A stretch of DNA of 25,791 nucleotides, from NCBI GenBank assembly GCA_015523565.1, contig WAKA01000161.1:1-25791 (forward strand), in the 5' to 3' direction. This stretch comes from Candidatus Heimdallarchaeota archaeon (lineage in GTDB: Archaea > Asgardarchaeota > Heimdallarchaeia > Heimdallarchaeales > Kariarchaeaceae). How positions within the stretch are numbered: the stretch's first letter is position 1; each line of letters opens with the position of its first letter. A model generated the notes under the pieces. It was not told where the DNA came from. It made no database searches and worked only from the letters and a program-made list of their open reading frames with translations. This document shows positions 3 through 11,416 of the stretch, piece by piece. Both the position numbers and the translations under genes were made by a program.

Positions 3-1097
3 ATTGCAGAAGAGGTCACAATAGTTTCCCTCGTTATGGGTGCGGCATCTGTCTTGATTGATATGGGTCGGTTGGATCGTGCACAGCATATTGTAATTTA
101 TGGTAACATTACTTCTCCATTAGTTTGGGATGTTATCTCTATTACCTTTTATCTTACTGGTAGTTTGATTTTCTTCTATACCCCGATTATTCCTGATTTT
201 GCATACTACCGTGATAATCTTGATCCTGAAAGGCATAAAATCAGGCAACGAATTTACAAAATATTGGCCTTAAATTGGAAAGGAACTCCTGAACAATTCG
301 ATAAGCTTGAACATGGGATTATGGAAAGATTGAAATGGTTCATTCTTCCAATTGCTCTTTCAGTACACACTGTTGTCAGTTGGATTTTTGCAGTTACATG
401 GAGACCAGGGTGGAACTCAACAATATTTGGTCCTTACTTTATTTCTGGTGCCATTTTCTCAGGAACCGCGGCACTGCTTACTGCACTGGTTGTTTTTACT
501 TGGTATTATGGCTTTCAAGATTATATTACAGTTTCCCATATACAGTCTACAACAAAAATTCTTTTGGCAACTAATTTTGCGTATGCGTATTTCACTCTTA
601 ACGAATATTTGATTCCTGCTTATAAACGCGAAACTGAGGAAATGGAATATTTATACCAGGTATATTACGGTGATCTTGCCCCCACTTTTTGGTTTATTAT
701 GATTGGAACTATGCTTGTGCCTTTTATCATGAACATGAAGATGCTGTCTATGAAAGAGGATGAACAGACAAAAGTTTATTGGTATGGCTTTATTTCTAGT
801 GTCCTGGTAAATATTGGTGCTTGGTTAAAGCGATATGTGATTTTGGTTCCAACTTTAAGAATCCCTGTAATTGATGAAAGTGAAGGTATCTATCCTTACA
901 ACCCAACTGCAGGGGAAATCTGGATTACCATTGCACAAGTCGCATTTTTCATTTTCTTCTATTGGTTTATCAACAAGATTGTTCCTCACATTCCTCTTTG
1001 GGAAGTTGAATTGGAATGGGAAAAAGATGGTTTGGTTGATGGTGAAACTCCGACTCGAAAGCATCTAAAAAGCATGGGATCAACATTTCACCATTGA
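3..1097 (+). CDS. NrfD/PsrC/ActC-family quinol-interacting membrane subunit (5'-truncated)
   Basis: Frame is open from base 3 (IAEEVTIVSLV-MGAA...), so the start lies outside the window. Motifs DMGRLDR, SPLVWD, SVHTVVS, RPGWNSTIFGPYFISGAIFSG and GAWLKRYVI, plus many TM segments, fit the NrfD family. Confidence 0.85.
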   Translation: MAEEVTIVSLVMGAASVLIDMGRLDRAQHIVIYGNITSPLVWDVISITFYLTGSLIFFYTPIIPDFAYYRDNLDPERHKIRQRIYKILALNWKGTPEQFDKLEHGIMERLKWFILPIALSVHTVVSWIFAVTWRPGWNSTIFGPYFISGAIFSGTAALLTALVVFTWYYGFQDYITVSHIQSTTKILLATNFAYAYFTLNEYLIPAYKRETEEMEYLYQVYYGDLAPTFWFIMIGTMLVPFIMNMKMLSMKEDEQTKVYWYGFISSVLVNIGAWLKRYVILVPTLRIPVIDESEGIYPYNPTAGEIWITIAQVAFFIFFYWFINKIVPHIPLWEVELEWEKDGLVDGETPTRKHLKSMGSTFHH

Positions 1098-1818: not shown

Positions 1819-2199
1819 TCAGGACAATAGCCTTTGAAGGGCAATTTCTGCACTTTCTGCAACATCTGGGTGCGGATGTTTCAATAACTTTCTAATTGGC
1901 ATTTCTGCGCGTTTATCCCCTAATGTTGCTAATGCAAGTGCTGCCTCATGAATGACAAAAATATTTTCATCTTCCTCCAACACTCTGATAAGATTTGGAA
2001 CGGCTTTTGGTGATGCAGTCTCTCCCAATGAAAACGCAATCTCATGTCTCACAATTGGTGATGGCTCTGAAAATAATGCCTTAATGAGACAATCCACTGC
2101 TTCTTCACTTCCATCATTCATTAATGCGAAACTCGCTTGAATTCTATTTTCTTTCGTTTCGTTCAAATCAAAAATGACTGATTTAGGGTCTTTTTCCAT
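1819..2199 (-). CDS. HEAT/PBS-lyase repeat protein resembling one half of deoxyhypusine hydroxylase (DOHH)
   Basis: 126 aa with about four HEAT-like repeats. Contains two His-Glu motifs (VRHEIAFSLGE, VIHEAALAL) and a C-terminal VAESAEIAL. Confidence 0.8.
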   Translation of the reverse strand: MEKDPKSVIFDLNETKENRIQASFALMNDGSEEAVDCLIKALFSEPSPIVRHEIAFSLGETASPKAVPNLIRVLEEDENIFVIHEAALALATLGDKRAEMPIRKLLKHPHPDVAESAEIALQRLLS

Positions 2200-2248
2200 A
2201 TGTTGTTTTGAAGATTTTAATTTATATTCTTAACTTAATATTCTTCAC

Positions 2249-2398
2249 TTAATCGCACTCTGAGAAAATGATAGGATAACTAATGATGCAAGCTGATCCG
2301 CTTCGAATACTTGCGGCGAATATTCCCATAAGAGCGGGCACTAGTGCGATAGCCAATTTCTTTGCAGAAAGTTTGAAAAAGCTGGTTGTTGTATTCAT
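2249..2398 (-). CDS. 49-aa putative secreted peptide precursor (MNTTTSFFKLSAKKLAIALVPALMGIFAASIRSGSACIISYPIIFSECD)
   Basis: Translated by hand; not in the ORF track. SD GAGGAGGT (2408-2415, minus) sits 9 nt from the ATG. TATA-like cttaaataa at 2447-2455 (minus). Signal-peptide-like n/h/c layout. Confidence 0.7.
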   Translation of the reverse strand: MNTTTSFFKLSAKKLAIALVPALMGIFAASIRSGSACIISYPIIFSECD

Positions 2399-2407
2399 GA
2401 TACCTTT

Positions 2408-2455
2408 ACCTCCTCAATTTTGAGGTGTTATCATATGCTGAGTCAATTATTTAAG
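2408..2455 (-). promoter_or_regulatory. TATA-like box and Shine-Dalgarno site for the 49-aa peptide gene
   Basis: Minus strand reads cttaaataa ... acctcaaaattgaggaggtaaaggtatcATG. Confidence 0.55.
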
Positions 2456-2513
2456 GTCAGATTGCAATTTTCCATATGAAAAGGGAAATTAATGTGATCG
2501 ATAATATAAATCA

Positions 2514-2663
2514 ATGAAAAACAAAAACCACAATGATTCTGAAAAAATAGACACATCTCCTCAATCTTTTGATTTTCTTTCATTTTTGATAAGATTTGCA
2601 ACCCCATTAGGCTTACTTATCTTTTCAATTGGAACAATAATACAGATTTTTTCAAGACAATAG
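2514..2663 (+). CDS. 49-aa putative small membrane protein with a C-terminal TM helix
   Basis: Hand translation: MKNKNHNDSEKIDTSPQSFDFLSFLIRFATPLGLLIFSIGTIIQIFSRQ. It fills the gap and stops 4 nt before the convergent wHTH stop. AT-rich box aaattaat lies 20-28 nt upstream. Confidence 0.4.
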   Translation: MKNKNHNDSEKIDTSPQSFDFLSFLIRFATPLGLLIFSIGTIIQIFSRQ

Positions 2664-2667
2664 GGAT

Positions 2668-4431: not shown

Positions 4432-5157
4432 TTATTGCTCAATTGAAGAAAATGACTTAATTAGGTCATCTCTATTTTTCATTCCATTAAGTTCCGCAAT
4501 CCTGTCCAATGTAAGCCCTGCATCCCTTTTTAGCATAGGTGTTCTTCTCGTTATCAAGGTATGGATTAATTCTGGAACTAGCACAGTGCTACCTATTTCC
4601 CCAATTGCATTCATTGTTGTCGTTTTTATGGCTGGATTTGCCTGCTTTTGCATTAGTTCCCAAAGTCTCTTTGCAACCTTGTCATTCTTTGAATTATAAT
4701 AGTTATTGGCAATGGCTCTTATGCAGTTTACCCGTACTGGCAAGGAATTATCCTTTTCCGCCATTTCCCAAAGGGTCTCAACTTGTTTGTCTGAAAGGGA
4801 ATTTGGGGGATATCTTGCCAATGCATCCGCGGCAAACCCTCTTATATTTTCCAATATATTTTCATTTTCTAGCAAAGAGAAAATATAGTCATGTGCTGGC
4901 TTATATTGTAAAACACCTAGCGACAAAAGAAAATGCCATGCTGGACGGAATGAACCTGTAAAGTTTTCTGGAATTGAATTTATTGCATCTTTCAATAATT
5001 GTAAAAGTTTTTCTCCCAAATCTGCAAATTTCTCTTTCTCTTTCCATTGCTCCCAAAAAGTCCAAAGATTCCTTGCTGCAACTGTTATTTCTTCAAAATC
5101 ATCTGAATTTATCATTTCTATGATTTCATCTTCGGTATATGCTGATTGCTGAACCAT
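4432..5157 (-). CDS. HEAT-repeat protein
   Basis: Repeats IRGFAADALA, VRVNCIRAIA, IKTTTMNAIGEIG and LKRDAGLTLDRI. Confidence 0.75.
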   Translation of the reverse strand: MVQQSAYTEDEIIEMINSDDFEEITVAARNLWTFWEQWKEKEKFADLGEKLLQLLKDAINSIPENFTGSFRPAWHFLLSLGVLQYKPAHDYIFSLLENENILENIRGFAADALARYPPNSLSDKQVETLWEMAEKDNSLPVRVNCIRAIANNYYNSKNDKVAKRLWELMQKQANPAIKTTTMNAIGEIGSTVLVPELIHTLITRRTPMLKRDAGLTLDRIAELNGMKNRDDLIKSFSSIEQ

Positions 5158-5208: not shown

Positions 5209-7539
5209 TTATTTATCTGGCGTGTGGTGAACTATTACAGCACTGTTGACTTTTTCCATAATCCTATATGCAAGCTTCGTACGCAATTTGTTTAATAGAC
5301 CTTTATCTTTTGTATGACCAATCAGCACTGCATCAGGTTCCCTTTTTTCAGTAGCTTGAACCAATGCCTTTACCAAATTGTGTCCGTACAGTAAAATCGG
5401 TGTGACATCCAAACCCATTCTTTCACATAGTTCTTTGGCATACTTTTCAAATTCTTCTGCACTCCTTTTTACTTCTGGAAACTCTGCTGCATCCTCTAAC
5501 GAAATTGTCTGTGGAATTTGAATAATATGGTATGCATATATGTGGCTTTTTGGTCCTGTTGATGAAATTATGCTTGCCCATCTTGCTAAATAGGCATCCC
5601 TTTCTGTCCCATCCATTAAAATAAATAAATCTCCTATTTCTTGTTTCTTGATCCCGTAATTTGGTGGATGGACTTGTAAAACTGTTGTATTGACACGTTC
5701 TACAACTGTTTTTGAAATGCTTTCCGTAAATAGCCTGTCTATTAACCCTTTTCTCCTTTTTGAGGAAAGAACCACCAATTGATAATCTCCTTTTTTACAG
5801 GTTTCTACAATTGTTTCTGATATTTTTGATGAAGAATCTATGATTACATTGTAGTTTTTCACTCGAAATTCCTTGAAAATGCTTAATGGTTGCGACAGAT
5901 CATCTTCTGGATTCCCTATATGCAAAATATCAACTTCCACATTGTATTTTCGTGCAATAGTTGCCGCAATTTGCCATGTTTTCGTTTCAAATGTCTCTCC
6001 TGATATTGGGACAAGCATTCGCTCTAAATCAACAAAATACTCGTCTGTATATCGGTACATTGGTGTAAACTCCTTTATCAGTTCTTTGCCCAATGGCTCT
6101 AGATCATATTTCCTTATTTCTTCTTCCTTGATTCCTCCCTTTCTGCTATAATAAAGATGCGTAATTAATGAAATCCCTAAAAAGATAATCAAAACACCCA
6201 ATGTAAGTTTTGATTTATCCAAATTGGCACCAATAAACAGAAAAACAAGAAATAGATAAAATAAAATCAAAATGGTTGCAATATATGCTAAGATCGGTCT
6301 TTCTTTCTTGAATACATGAATTACTGCAAAATTAATGGAAAGAAAAATCCCTAAGAAAATTACAGATCCAACTTCTGCAATTTCCTCTGCATTCCCAAAG
6401 AATGTGAAAAACCAACTGACTCCACTTGTGATGATAATCGCCATGTATGGCACTTTTGTTTTCTTGCTTATTTTTGCAATGCTTTTGGGAAATGCCCCAT
6501 AATCCGACATTACATATGCCAATCTTGAGGAGCCTAGCAAAGTTGCGTTAATTGCCGACGTTGTACTTGCCGCAGCACCAAATGCCACTAAGAAGACTGC
6601 CCATCCTCCTAAAAATTTCACAGCATCAATTAATGCGTCTTCCTCAATATGGTGGGGATTGTCAACAAGGCTGAATGTTGCAATTGTTACCGCACAATAT
6701 GTGAAAGTTACAACAACCACGGAAATTATCATGCCCAATTTGACATCTCTTGCGGGATTCTTCAATTCCTCAACCGTATTTGCAATAACTTGAAACCCTT
6801 CATAACTAACAAAAATTACTGCACTTCCAATAATCATCCCGCTTAATCCTCCAAAAATTCCTAGGTCTTCTCCGCTTGTTGGATTCAAGGGATTGACATC
6901 TATGAAAAATGGAACATAATTCTTTGGATTAAAAAGAATGAACCCAACTACTGCAACGAACATTAAGACAGACACTTTGAACAACACGATGGCATTTTGA
7001 ATTGTTCCTGTTTCCTTCACCCCTTTCAGATTAATGAGCATAAATGTTGCAATCGCCAAAAAAGCAAGTACCTTTCTTCCAGTTATCTGGGTGTTAAATC
7101 CTCCAACAATCCATCCCTCATAGTCTAATCTGAAAAAATCAATCCCTGTAAACATATTCAGGAAACTGCTCATATATAGACCAAATGTAAAGGCATACAA
7201 TGCAATAGTCACTGAATATCCCAACCAAAGCATCATGCCCACCATATTTCCAAAAATCGGCTTGTCTTGGAATCCTTTTCTCAAAATCACAAATTCTCCC
7301 CCCGCTGAGGGATATTTTGCAACAATCTTATAATATGACGTTGCAGTTAATAATGCTATAATCCCTCCTAAAAAAAAACTAATTACTGAAGAAGGTCCTG
7401 CCATCCTTGCAAGCCTCCCCAACACTGAAAATATCCCTCCGCCGATCATTGCTCCAACCGCTATGGAAACGGCCTCTTTTAACCCTAACTCTTTTGCAAA
7501 CTCCGTATGGGTTAATTGATCTTCTACTTTTACATCCAT
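5209..7539 (-). CDS. APC-superfamily amino acid/cation permease with C-terminal universal-stress-protein-like domains
   Basis: GAMIGGGIF TM1 motif, YPSAGG, FVSYEGFQ and about 12 TMs. The soluble C-terminal ~280 aa has two USP-like units (MLVPISG...DYQLVVL...ISKTVV; ILMDG...PDAVLIG...AVIVHH). Confidence 0.88.
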   Translation of the reverse strand: MDVKVEDQLTHTEFAKELGLKEAVSIAVGAMIGGGIFSVLGRLARMAGPSSVISFFLGGIIALLTATSYYKIVAKYPSAGGEFVILRKGFQDKPIFGNMVGMMLWLGYSVTIALYAFTFGLYMSSFLNMFTGIDFFRLDYEGWIVGGFNTQITGRKVLAFLAIATFMLINLKGVKETGTIQNAIVLFKVSVLMFVAVVGFILFNPKNYVPFFIDVNPLNPTSGEDLGIFGGLSGMIIGSAVIFVSYEGFQVIANTVEELKNPARDVKLGMIISVVVVTFTYCAVTIATFSLVDNPHHIEEDALIDAVKFLGGWAVFLVAFGAAASTTSAINATLLGSSRLAYVMSDYGAFPKSIAKISKKTKVPYMAIIITSGVSWFFTFFGNAEEIAEVGSVIFLGIFLSINFAVIHVFKKERPILAYIATILILFYLFLVFLFIGANLDKSKLTLGVLIIFLGISLITHLYYSRKGGIKEEEIRKYDLEPLGKELIKEFTPMYRYTDEYFVDLERMLVPISGETFETKTWQIAATIARKYNVEVDILHIGNPEDDLSQPLSIFKEFRVKNYNVIIDSSSKISETIVETCKKGDYQLVVLSSKRRKGLIDRLFTESISKTVVERVNTTVLQVHPPNYGIKKQEIGDLFILMDGTERDAYLARWASIISSTGPKSHIYAYHIIQIPQTISLEDAAEFPEVKRSAEEFEKYAKELCERMGLDVTPILLYGHNLVKALVQATEKREPDAVLIGHTKDKGLLNKLRTKLAYRIMEKVNSAVIVHHTPDK

Positions 7540-7631: not shown

Positions 7632-8384
7632 TTATTTTGCAGACATCGCCTTTTTGCTTACCACTTTCCGTGTCAACTCAAAAATCGGCTGAATTAGCCT
7701 TTTGACTGGCTCTGGTCGCATTTCTTTCCTGAACCTTCCCTTCTCATCAAAAAACTTCTTGCGATCTTCGCTTTGTATGATCTCAAGTAAAGCATCTTTT
7801 GCATCTAAACATGAAATGCCATACACCTCTTCATTTTCAAACCCTTCTGATCTAATTATTTCTTTGATTTCTTCAATTTTCATTTTCTCCGTTTCAGGCA
7901 AATCCATCTTGTTCACTGCAAAAACAATGGGGGTGTCTTCTGGGATTACCCTGCCCATGTTTTCTTTTAGCTCCCTCAATATTGCCTTCGTCCTTTCACG
8001 CTGGACTTTATTAAAATCCAGTAGAACCAAAATGCCTTCTGTTCCATTCAACACTACTTCCCGTGTCTTTCGATATCGGTCTTGTCCCGCAACACAATAG
8101 ATTCTGTACTTCAATAAAGGTGTATCCTTGGTACTCCGACCATCCACTGTAAATGTATTCTGATCAAATAGTGCAGTCTCTTCAAATGGATTTTTTATTG
8201 AAGTAAGCTTTCCACTGGAGTGGGGATTTTCCATTTTTTTTAATATTGAATAAAGCTCAATTAATGTACTTTTCCCAGCTTCCGCTGGACCGTAGATGAC
8301 AAGTTTGATGGTTGGTATCCCCTCTATATCTGTCTTAAATGTAGAAACTTCATTCATGTAATCCTGATAGGCTAGATTATTCAT
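7632..8384 (-). CDS. Small Ras-superfamily GTPase, MglA-like
   Basis: G1 GPAEAGKST, switch-I ETALFD, G3 CVAGQ, G4 NKMD, G5 SCL. Confidence 0.85.
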   Translation of the reverse strand: MNNLAYQDYMNEVSTFKTDIEGIPTIKLVIYGPAEAGKSTLIELYSILKKMENPHSSGKLTSIKNPFEETALFDQNTFTVDGRSTKDTPLLKYRIYCVAGQDRYRKTREVVLNGTEGILVLLDFNKVQRERTKAILRELKENMGRVIPEDTPIVFAVNKMDLPETEKMKIEEIKEIIRSEGFENEEVYGISCLDAKDALLEIIQSEDRKKFFDEKGRFRKEMRPEPVKRLIQPIFELTRKVVSKKAMSAK

Positions 8385-8445: not shown

Positions 8446-9429
8446 TCAACTTTTTCTGTATGTCTGTTCTAACATTTCTCTAATTTTTGTTGCTATCGGC
8501 TTTGCCTCTTCAAGTCCATCATCATAAGCTTCTTCAAGCCATTTCAACGCCATGAATGGGGAATCTTCCATTAGATATAGGCCTAAATTGTATTTTGCTT
8601 CGCTTATTCCCTCTTCTGCTGCTTCTTCCAATAATTTCATCCCTCTTTCAAAATTTCCACTTTCTATGTGAATTACCCCTAAGTTGACTTTTACTTCAAC
8701 TAATCCCAATTTTAATGCCTCTTCAAGCAATTCAATTGCTTTCTCATTATTCCCTTTTGAAAAATGGTATAGGGCTAAATCAGAAAATGATTCTGGATCC
8801 CCCATATTTTTTGCCTTTTCCAGACAACGAAGCTGCCGTTTCTCATCCCTAAGCTCCCCAAACAGTAAAATCAATTCCTTAATTTCCCCAATTGTCAAAC
8901 TCCTCAATTGGATTTCTAACACCTTGTCCAATTCTTCATCTAAATCAAGGTTTTCCAATGCCTTTATGTATCGTTTTGTAGCTGTGAAATCTCCCTGTTT
9001 TGATGCTCTTGAATACCATGTAACTGCTTTTCTTAAATCCCCCTTTTCTTCAATCAGTTCTCCTAAAATGGTCAAAGATTCATTAATTAAGTTCCTGTCA
9101 CTGCTCATCTCAATTGATTGTTTCAAATACCTTTCTGCCTTCTCATAATCCCCCTTTTTAAAATAGTAGTTTCCTGCAATCTGCATTGAAAAATCTGTGT
9201 TGGCATTTATGGCTTGCTCAATCAATGCCGCAGCATCATTCAATCTCCCCTGATTTACATACAAATCGCATAAATGCAATATTGCATCCTTGTGACCATA
9301 TTTGGATGCTTTAGTTAGCCATTCAATTGCTGGTTCAAAAAATCTCTGTTCTTGGAATGACTTGCCCACCTCAAACATGGCGTCAGGATTCCCTTTCTGT
9401 GCCTCATTATATCTTTGTGCACTAACCAT
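8446..9429 (-). CDS. Sel1-like/TPR repeat protein
   Basis: Repeats such as AQKGNPDAMFEVG, AIEWLTKASKYGHKDA, KAVTWYSRASKQG and EAKYNLG. Confidence 0.85.
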   Translation of the reverse strand: MVSAQRYNEAQKGNPDAMFEVGKSFQEQRFFEPAIEWLTKASKYGHKDAILHLCDLYVNQGRLNDAAALIEQAINANTDFSMQIAGNYYFKKGDYEKAERYLKQSIEMSSDRNLINESLTILGELIEEKGDLRKAVTWYSRASKQGDFTATKRYIKALENLDLDEELDKVLEIQLRSLTIGEIKELILLFGELRDEKRQLRCLEKAKNMGDPESFSDLALYHFSKGNNEKAIELLEEALKLGLVEVKVNLGVIHIESGNFERGMKLLEEAAEEGISEAKYNLGLYLMEDSPFMALKWLEEAYDDGLEEAKPIATKIREMLEQTYRKS

Positions 9430-9475: not shown

Positions 9476-11416
9476 TTATAATTTCTTAATTGTAGGATTT
9501 AAATCATCAACCCCAGAATATTCAACCTTGACAATCCCTGCTTTTTCCAATTCTGAAATCGCCTCAAGTGCTTTGTAAGGGGCTACTCCTGCACTCATTG
9601 CCAATGTTCGCAACTTAATCTCGTTTTCCGTTTCCAATATTTCCTCTACACTAGAGGCTAACTTCACTGCAACAGGAGATGATAATTGTTGAATTGGTCT
9701 TGGTTTTATTTTGTGCACTGTCTTTTCCTTCTCTCTTCCTTCCCTGCTCTCTGATATTATTTCACCTAACTCCATGTTCTTCCTTTCCAATTCCACAATT
9801 TGTAATTTTAGTGCTTCAATGCGATCCAGTGCCTCACCTAGACTCAAAACTGCTTGATCCCTCTCTTTTTCCAGATCACGAATTATTGATGTTAGTGTCT
9901 CAATTCTTCCTTCTTGATTCTTAAGCATGAGATCTTTGCTTTCCACTCTTTTTTCAAGGGTCTCTCTTCTTTCCTCAAGCCTCTTGATTTTCTCCTTAAG
10001 CTTATTTACTGCATCCAACTTCTGTGCTAAATCTTCCCTTGAACTTAACTGTTTCATTCTTTCCATTTCATGTTTGAGGCTCTTTACCTGATTTTGATGT
10101 TCCTGTAATTGCTTTTGCAACTCTTCAATCTGTTTTTCTTTCTCCAAAAGTTGCTGTCTTTGTTTTTCTAGTTTATTCTCAAAATAACTAAGCTCCTCAC
10201 GTTGACCCAATATTAATTCATCAATGTCTTTTTTATGTTCCATTTCGATTTTATCAAATTTTTGCCTATATTCTTCAATTTCCCTCTCTTTCTCTTTAAG
10301 TTGTGCTTTGTATGTGCTTCGCTCCTTCTCTGCTTCTTCCAATTTCCTCTCAAGCTGTACAAGGTTTTCTTTGAGATGATGTATCTCTTCTTCTTTTTCC
10401 TTTAATTTTGTTTCCAGGATTTCAATTTCATTTGTTCTATCAACTGCATTTAGTTGTTGCACCAAATTTTCAATCTCACTTTCTTTGACCGCTAACTTTT
10501 CCTCCAATTCTTTCAATCTTGTTTCCTTATTCTCTCCTCTTTCTGTCCATCCTTGTGTCGTGGAATTCAACTCAAACTCCAAACTAAATATTTTCTGCTC
10601 TAACTGTATTCTCTCGCGATTTAATTCTTCAATCTCCCTATTGAGACGTGAAATGATTTTTGCAGATCTTATCAATTCATTTTTTAATCGAACCCTGTCA
10701 TCTAGTTCTTTTTTCTTTTGAACATAGATGAATGCCATGTCTTGGTCTCCCTTATGTTGATGGATTTCTTCCAATGAACTATAAACTCCTGCCATTCCCT
10801 CATAATAGTCTAACTGCTCAAAAATATGAAGGGCTTGTGTTAAGTATTCTATTGCCAAATCCATTTTTCCAAGGAGACGATATGTTGTCCCTAATTGATA
10901 TGCGGTCAATCCCAAATTTCTCCGCAAATTCAATTGCTTGCAAACTCCATAGTAATGTTCGAATTCTTTAACTGCACTCTCCAATTCTCCTTTTCTCGAA
11001 TGCAAGATCCCCTTCTCATAATGCAAAAATCCAATTTCTTCTGCCAGTTGGTTTTTTTGCCGATCCAACAATTTCTCATATTCCTTTTCAAATGTATCTA
11101 TCAGCAAATATGCCATGTCAAAATTCCCTTGAAGTATTTCTAAGCCAATTTGAAGCGTATAGGCTTTCAATAGATGCACTTTCTTGTCTTTGGCTTTGCA
11201 CAACATAACTACATTGTCGACGGTTTTTTTTGCCTCTTCAATCTCGCCCAATTCTATCGCTAATTTCCCCTTTAAAATGTCCAACTCTAACTTCTCTTCC
11301 AAACTCAGGTCTTGTCCAGAAAATTTCTCCAATTCAGTCAATGCATCCATGAATTTGCCAGAGTTTATGTACAACTTGATCTGATGAATAAAACCTTCGA
11401 AACTCACAACTCTCAA
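9476..11416 (-). CDS. TPR + long coiled-coil + C-terminal winged-helix protein
   Basis: N-terminal ~240 aa of TPRs (YQLGTTYRLLGKMDLAIEYLTQAL), then ~320 aa of E/K/Q/L heptads, then a C-terminal wH-like segment (IKLRTLAMSAGV...ALEAISELEKAGIVKV). Start codon (TTG or nearby GTG) is uncertain. Confidence 0.75.
   Translation of the reverse strand: MRVVSFEGFIHQIKLYINSGKFMDALTELEKFSGQDLSLEEKLELDILKGKLAIELGEIEEAKKTVDNVVMLCKAKDKKVHLLKAYTLQIGLEILQGNFDMAYLLIDTFEKEYEKLLDRQKNQLAEEIGFLHYEKGILHSRKGELESAVKEFEHYYGVCKQLNLRRNLGLTAYQLGTTYRLLGKMDLAIEYLTQALHIFEQLDYYEGMAGVYSSLEEIHQHKGDQDMAFIYVQKKKELDDRVRLKNELIRSAKIISRLNREIEELNRERIQLEQKIFSLEFELNSTTQGWTERGENKETRLKELEEKLAVKESEIENLVQQLNAVDRTNEIEILETKLKEKEEEIHHLKENLVQLERKLEEAEKERSTYKAQLKEKEREIEEYRQKFDKIEMEHKKDIDELILGQREELSYFENKLEKQRQQLLEKEKQIEELQKQLQEHQNQVKSLKHEMERMKQLSSREDLAQKLDAVNKLKEKIKRLEERRETLEKRVESKDLMLKNQEGRIETLTSIIRDLEKERDQAVLSLGEALDRIEALKLQIVELERKNMELGEIISESREGREKEKTVHKIKPRPIQQLSSPVAVKLASSVEEILETENEIKLRTLAMSAGVAPYKALEAISELEKAGIVKVEYSGVDDLNPTIKKL

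Follow-up and report, generated by a model that had tools for sequence, protein, structure and literature searches.

The window analysed here, a stretch of 25,791 nucleotides from a Heimdall-group archaeon, contains a gene for a small HEAT-repeat protein that, judged by its sequence, is a conserved and selected one-lobe member of the deoxyhypusine hydroxylase (DOHH) lineage. An apparently oxygen-respiring archaeon encodes exactly one lobe of the two-lobed iron enzyme that completes the hypusine modification of translation factor 5A in eukaryotes, and its gene is a testable candidate for an activity reported to be absent in archaea. In our assessment the half-size protein is a candidate homodimeric diiron DOHH, a reading that we consider somewhat better than even. 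It draws on a predicted dimer, on a pattern in which related genomes have a one-lobe or a two-lobe gene but never both, on the presence of deoxyhypusine synthase (DHS) and aIF5A in the host, and on indications of oxygen respiration.

The reading frame of the half-size gene opens with the ATG at position 2199, which is the first start codon past the upstream stop (Table 1). An earlier sequence-only reading had described a protein of 126 aa with about four HEAT repeats, the His-Glu motifs H52-E53 and H84-E85, an N-terminal motif (R19-x-x-A22-x-F24-x-L26) and a C-terminal motif (V113-x-E115-S116-x-x-x-A120-L121), and all of these were found in place in the ORF and in an AlphaFold2 model. This model, built with 38 homologues, reached a pLDDT of 97.8 and is all-helical, with seven long helices and one short helix forming approximately four HEAT hairpins.

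Table 1 Features of the half-size DOHH-like gene and of its upstream region, with positions in the window.
Feature	Position	Strand	Basis
Single-lobe (half-size) DOHH-like HEAT protein gene, 126 aa	1819..2199, stop codon included	(-)	ORF and translation
H52-E53 codons (CATGAG), first His-Glu motif	2041..2046	(-)	Read from sequence
H84-E85 codons (CATGAG), second His-Glu motif	1945..1950	(-)	Read from sequence
E115-S116-A117-E118 codons, invariant C-terminal block, last helix, predicted dimer interface	1846..1857	(-)	38-homologue alignment and dimer model
R19 to L26 codons (R-I-Q-A-S-F-A-L), first conserved helix	2122..2145	(-)	R19, I20 and F24 invariant
Intergenic stretch, 468 bp, 5' of the half-size gene	2200..2667	.	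No second (N-terminal) lobe remnant

Human DOHH was the best natural relative of the half-size protein by both sequence and fold. A sequence search of the PDB returned its structure 4D4Z as the best natural match (E 2e-22, query residues 10-124, both lobes matched), and Foldseek gave the same structure the top TM-score (0.88, rmsd 1.5 Å over 122 columns) as the sole natural protein among the top matches. Residues were mapped via P0154, a eukaryotic DOHH database entry that is collinear with 4D4Z and matches the half-size protein twice, with 35% and 33% identity. Through this mapping, H52/E53 align with human H56/E57 or H207/E208, and H84/E85 with H89/E90 or H240/E241. The proposal that the protein equals one half of DOHH was thereby borne out, as its His-Glu pairs can be aligned with either lobe. 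By this correspondence H52 is a predicted iron ligand, E53 being the counterpart of human E57/E208, and H84 and E85, which correspond to human H89/E90 and H240/E241, are likewise predicted to bind iron. Furthermore, the R19-L26 block aligns with the R-F/Y-R-A-x-F-x-L-R that opens each eukaryotic DOHH lobe.

The four-hairpin HEAT lobe, the R-x-x-A-x-F-x-L opening, the E-S/T-x-x-x-A-L ending and the motif positions are common to the half-size protein and eukaryotic DOHH (human 4D4Z/4D50, yeast Lia1, EC 1.14.99.29), with a His-Glu spacing of 32 residues in the former and 33 in the latter. In contrast, the eukaryotic enzyme has about 300 aa, eight HEAT repeats and four His-Glu motifs in one chain, whereas the half-size protein consists of one lobe with two such motifs in 126 aa, and the first motif is followed by L-G-E in the half-size protein and by L-G-Q in eukaryotic DOHH. 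The sequence-only reading had made its assignment dependent on the conservation of the His-Glu motifs in homologues, and this conservation is nearly complete: the first pair is kept in 125/125 and the second in 124/125 half-size homologues, and the S-P-I-V-R-H-E, F-V-x-H-E and E-S-A-E blocks are invariant in the alignment of 38 homologues. Several of the half-size homologues bear the JGI automatic name 'deoxyhypusine monooxygenase'.

These homologues are 125-147 aa long and share the invariant residues of the window protein. Their identity to it is 84-85% within its own genus and 63-68% in two other Heimdall families, and homologues with 47-62% identity occur in approximately 35 DPANN genomes (Pacearchaeota, Woesearchaeota, Nanoarchaeia), which are tiny (0.5-1 Mb). 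Considered jointly, the DPANN and other Heimdall half-size homologues fall into the same length class (125-140 aa), with the same invariant residues and approximately 50-70% identity to the window protein. Among 400 Asgard genomes, DOHH-like genes were present in 12, namely the host genome (G000) and members of the families f1 (8/11 besides G000), f4 (2/3) and f6 (1/2). A thirteenth Asgard match turned out to be a generic HEAT protein. Weak matches in G004 (genus g2) and G083 were generic HEAT proteins without His-Glu pairs. A profile search against 1.8 billion representatives retrieved mostly long multi-repeat HEAT proteins and yielded few extra one-lobe or two-lobe sequences.

Open frames of 250-300 aa with two tandem lobes and four His-Glu pairs are present in four other genera of the window's family; those that were read encode 251 and 254 aa. 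One Asgard family therefore holds both the one-lobe and the two-lobe architecture, and the two are mutually exclusive by genome: the related Heimdall genomes that carry a DOHH-like gene contain one half-size or one full-size gene, and none contains both. For the full-size protein P0135 (G008), a template-free model (pLDDT 97) had human DOHH as its sole whole-chain match with a TM-score of 0.85. As the next match reached only 0.46, the modelled full-size form has the DOHH dyad and is not a plain solenoid. The full-size Heimdall forms (P0135, and P0121 and P0150, which are labelled Kariarchaeaceae by NCBI) are of the same order and carry the same invariant blocks as the half-size protein, which is 49-55% identical to their C lobe and 38-48% identical to their N lobe. 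They differ from it in having two lobes in one chain of approximately 250-265 aa and in their loci, which are non-syntenic with the half-size gene.

Two further forms were seen outside the Asgard archaea. Metagenome-assembled genomes (MAGs) of DPANN archaea contain two-lobe DOHH-like genes of approximately 275 aa with four His-Glu motifs (L053, L056, L057, L058); L058 stems from a MAG titled 'uncultured Methanosarcinales archaeon', and the close likeness of its copy to those of Woesearchaeota/Nanoarchaeota suggests a binning error. A one-lobe form of approximately 165 aa, with two His-Glu motifs and L-G-Q/K like eukaryotic DOHH, was found in two Marsarchaeota/Thermoprotei MAGs and on one gammaproteobacterial MAG chromosome (L060:3860-4375, L061:3902-4417, L062:3818-4306). 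When this Marsarchaeota/Thermoprotei-type form was searched for in other genomes, only the two MAGs were found to carry it. Hypusine is known in Sulfolobales.

The host genome (3.57 Mb, 90% complete) encodes a deoxyhypusine synthase (G000:C121:10253-11116, E 1e-92) and, on contig C219, an aIF5A with the target-lysine loop K-A-G-K-H-G-H-A-K. It also contains three genes for haem-copper oxidase subunit I (G000:C109, C37 and C232), one of which lies within an 823-aa frame. Together with an NrfD-type membrane subunit encoded in the window (3-1097, +), these oxidase genes point to a respiratory chain that operates aerobically or microaerobically. Within the order, DOHH-like genes were confined to the same two families as haem-copper oxidase, i.e., f1 (oxidase 10/11, DOHH-like gene 8/11, besides G000 itself) and f4 (2/3 for both), and neither gene was detected in families f2 (oxidase 0/25, DOHH-like gene 0/31) and f3 (0/1 for both). 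Because approximately two independent lineages stand behind this association, it is to be read as a hint and not as a statistic. DHS was present in 5/5 DPANN genomes of the checked set that carry the half-size gene. Many DPANN archaea are thought to be anaerobic, and the fact that most half-size homologues occur in this group fits badly with an O2-dependent enzyme.

The half-size protein could instead be a DOHH-family metal (probably diiron) HEAT protein with a substrate other than aIF5A, which would function in amine or side-chain hydroxylation or in the handling of O2 or peroxide. The abundance of the gene in small DPANN genomes would agree with such a role, as would the departure of the half-size forms from the eukaryotic lobes at conserved sites such as L-G-E, and the gene is not linked to the hypusine pathway: aIF5A was found within 4 kb of it in 1/40 loci and DHS in 0/40. 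Peroxiredoxin-like and glutaredoxin-like genes are each located at most 4 kb from the half-size gene in 4/40 loci (e.g., the DPANN loci L019, L028 and L029), which would suit O2 or peroxide handling but is too rare to indicate linkage. No gene family recurred as a neighbour in more than 5/40 loci, and synteny of the half-size locus was kept within the genus only. A different substrate is harder to reconcile with the retention of the DOHH-defining residues, including Glu in the first His-Glu pair and a Gly located six positions after it, with the mutual exclusion between the half-size gene and a full-size form showing the complete DOHH dyad fold, and with the occurrence of the substrate pathway in every genome checked. 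We regard this alternative as unlikely, and the hydroxylation of aIF5A-bound deoxyhypusine as the preferred reading.

A second DOHH-like gene was sought across the 90%-complete host genome and was not found; a match on contig C207 proved to be a generic HEAT protein. With one DOHH-like gene in the genome, a metal site composed of four His-Glu pairs could only arise through homodimerisation, which is also what the sequence-only reading had envisaged. A complex prediction with two half-size copies and two Fe scored 0.88, whereas none of three controls exceeded 0.01. The lobe-lobe packing of 4D4Z resembles the predicted dimer and has been solved, so that the high score may reflect a structure already known to the predictor; it shows likeness, not binding. 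In a benchmark, the mark of 0.88 was reached by 20/30 proteins solved as one-chain pairs and by 1/23 proteins solved as single chains. The contacts in the dimer model were 100% identical across three runs, with a partner pLDDT of at least 95. The predicted interface is symmetric and comprises residues 15-18, 20, 47-50, 79, 81, 84, 112, 115-116, 118-119, 122-123 and 126. The family keeps 11 of these 20 residues without variation (hypergeometric p = 0.0014), including H84, F81, S47-V50, E115, S116 and E118, as a conserved dimer with an on-axis metal site would predict. The envisaged homodimer was thus obtained as a symmetric, high-confidence model with an interface that is rich in invariant residues and includes H84.

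According to mutagenesis of DOHH and the 4D4Z structure, two His and one Glu from the same lobe coordinate each iron, and the first-motif Glu acts in substrate binding. DOHH consists of two arms with four HEAT repeats each, which are arranged as a symmetrical dyad and between which four His-Glu sites form a binuclear iron centre that binds O2 (PMC8153317). By analogy, two copies of the half-size protein would pair head-to-head about a two-fold axis, and each chain would contribute H52, H84 and E85 to one iron, so that the dimer would rebuild the diiron centre. DHS would provide the substrate by converting the conserved aIF5A lysine (loop G-K-H-G-H-A-K) to deoxyhypusine. The diiron centre would then bind O2 and hydroxylate this residue to hypusine, with E53 possibly helping to hold the substrate amine. 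The diiron site of the half-size enzyme, with its four His-Glu pairs, would arise between two chains and be fully symmetric, whereas that of eukaryotic DOHH lies within one chain.

The half-size protein might also form a heterodimer with another protein, in which only one lobe would bind iron. One such partner could be a HEAT-repeat protein of 241 aa, which is encoded in the window at 4432-5157 (-), 2.2 kb from the half-size gene. Within the genus, two other genomes carry the half-size gene and have a homologue of the 241-aa protein (74% and 56% identity) encoded close to it, at a distance of approximately 0.9 kb in G003. However, this protein lacks any His-Glu motif and was not retrieved with DOHH queries, its gene was not seen beside the half-size gene outside the genus, and the homodimer is itself predicted with high confidence and a conserved interface. 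We therefore deem a heterodimer very unlikely and retain the homodimer as the preferred form.

Pfam assigned generic HEAT_2 (2e-18) / HEAT_PBS to the half-size protein and nothing else, and its weak PBS-lyase-like matches in NCBIfam (21-26 bits) remained far under the equivalog cut-offs of 300-600, so that membership in the phycobilin lyase / NblB group (CpcE, CpeY, NblB) was rejected. PBS-lyase HEAT-like proteins (CpcE, NblB) resemble it in repeat type and fold, as do the synthetic alphaRep consensus proteins, whose design derives from these repeats, but they have no His-Glu pairs and form a continuous solenoid instead of a two-lobe dyad (TM ≤0.46 to the full-size Heimdall form). As a control, 558 four-repeat segments were taken from 132 long generic HEAT proteins that were the best matches to the same profile, and both His-Glu pairs were present in 3/558. 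Within the genus, pN of the half-size gene (0.11-0.13) is low compared to a saturated pS (0.78-0.89), which indicates strong purifying selection. A decayed N lobe was sought in the intergenic stretch upstream of the gene by tblastn with the N lobes of five full-size relatives (best E 0.3); stops fill all three frames of this stretch, and its GC content is 0.32 as compared to 0.39 inside the half-size gene. It is consequently extremely improbable that the protein is a non-catalytic HEAT scaffold of the PBS-lyase/alphaRep type or a functionless leftover of a full-size form, as the generic Pfam and NCBIfam similarity (26 bits versus cut-offs of at least 300) and the scores of synthetic consensus alphaRep proteins, the sole PDB entries above human DOHH, could be taken to imply: the His-Glu pairs are invariant in the family and rare in generic HEAT segments, the gene is under purifying selection, no trace of a lost lobe exists upstream, over 120 homologues share its size, and the alphaRep scores are inflated by summation over many consensus repeats.

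The sequence-only reading had further proposed that the half-size gene represents a pre-duplication form of the eukaryotic enzyme, to be examined by a phylogeny of split lobes. Two-lobe proteins were split into their lobes and analysed together with the half-size proteins in a quick tree of 121 rows and in a maximum likelihood (ML) tree of 73 rows. The latter and the approximately unbiased (AU) tests were calculated with IQ-TREE under LG+G4, and the AU figures derive from longer constrained searches. In both trees, the eukaryotic N and C lobes clustered together (99/100), as did the N and C lobes of the DPANN two-lobe proteins (95/97), and the Heimdall N lobes formed a long-branched clade (100/96). 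A tree with all N lobes as one clade was rejected by the AU test (delta lnL 160, p = 1e-5), as was the joining of Heimdall and eukaryotic N lobes (p = 0.007). The tests rejected neither a clade of Heimdall N and C lobes (p = 0.32), nor one of all half-size proteins (p = 0.25), nor the pair P0001 and P0005 (p = 0.057). As the lobes cluster by lineage, one duplication common to all two-lobe forms is rejected. Separate duplications of a one-lobe unit in several lineages agree best with the data, as does gene conversion or co-evolution among lobes, which would mimic such a pattern. Contrary to this clustering, two alignment columns distinguish N from C lobes in archaea and eukaryotes alike, with Thr (N) versus Ser (C) in the E-S/T block (position 116) and Tyr versus Phe after the first motif.

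The window protein grouped with the Heimdall C lobes (aLRT/UFBoot 92/96) and not with the eukaryotic lobe clade, the tree neighbours of which were DPANN full-size and Marsarchaeota-type half-size forms; the ~165-aa forms were nearer to the eukaryotic clade than the Heimdall forms, with weak support. Nothing ties the window protein specifically to the eukaryotic DOHH clade. In a single-gene RpoB tree, the closest neighbour of the window genus was one that has the two-lobe form (aLRT 100), in a family where this form prevails, and the window protein is 63-68% identical to the one-lobe proteins of other Heimdall families but only 54% identical to the C lobe of the sister genus. The AU tests do not separate a relic from a C-lobe-like descendant or a transferred gene. 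A replacement by transfer, or the differential loss of two old paralogues, fits the window gene better than a simple relic or a fresh truncation. Hence, the pre-duplication proposal stands insofar as a shared duplication is rejected and lobes cluster by lineage, and it is not supported for the window protein as a form specific to the eukaryotic enzyme, given the different neighbours of the eukaryotic lobes, its own grouping with Heimdall C lobes and the two-lobe genus beside its host. We tentatively put forward, as a possible but doubtful scenario, that the one-lobe homodimer is both a working DOHH and the ancestral form, with separate duplications in at least three lineages (the Heimdall group, DPANN and eukaryotes).

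Eukaryotes cannot do without the hypusine of factor 5A, and reports of hypusine in some archaea date back a long time. The conserved one-lobe DOHH homologue provides a concrete gene for expression and assay. If the proposed function is true, it would be a natural symmetric homodimeric version of an enzyme that is known only as an internally duplicated chain. The occurrence of both forms in one Heimdall family, and in oxygen-respiring families only, bears on the timing of O2-dependent hypusination relative to the origin of eukaryotes. Should the one-lobe homodimer indeed be ancestral, oxygen-using relatives of the eukaryotic ancestor would already have made true hypusine, and one Asgard family would preserve both architectures. 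According to papers of 2016, 2018 and 2021, no DOHH homologue had turned up in archaea and the archaeal pathway was unsolved, and a literature search combining DOHH with Asgard, Heimdall and archaeal terms returned no report of an archaeal DOHH from the searched collection, beyond which further papers may exist. The statement that no canonical archaeal DOHH is recognised thus agrees with the published record but does not hold for sequence data, as two-lobe homologues occur in the Heimdall group and in DPANN archaea and DOHH-type genes are therefore not missing from archaeal sequences.

Several other genes in the window and its relatives were recorded. A Ras/Arf/Roc-like small GTPase gene at 7632-8384 (-) is followed by genes for two TPR proteins at 8446-9429 (-) and 9476-11416 (-), a set that is typical of Asgard archaea. 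An amino-acid permease is fused to two universal-stress-protein domains in a 776-aa protein encoded at 5209-7539 (-). The window also contains an unsplit RNA polymerase B subunit. In genus g9, this subunit is encoded as a single frame of approximately 1625 aa (L096/L101 in G018:C216 and L097/L102 in G014:C165, the G014 copy having one internal TAA), in which an in-frame insert of approximately 1.5 kb between two matching parts looks like an intein.
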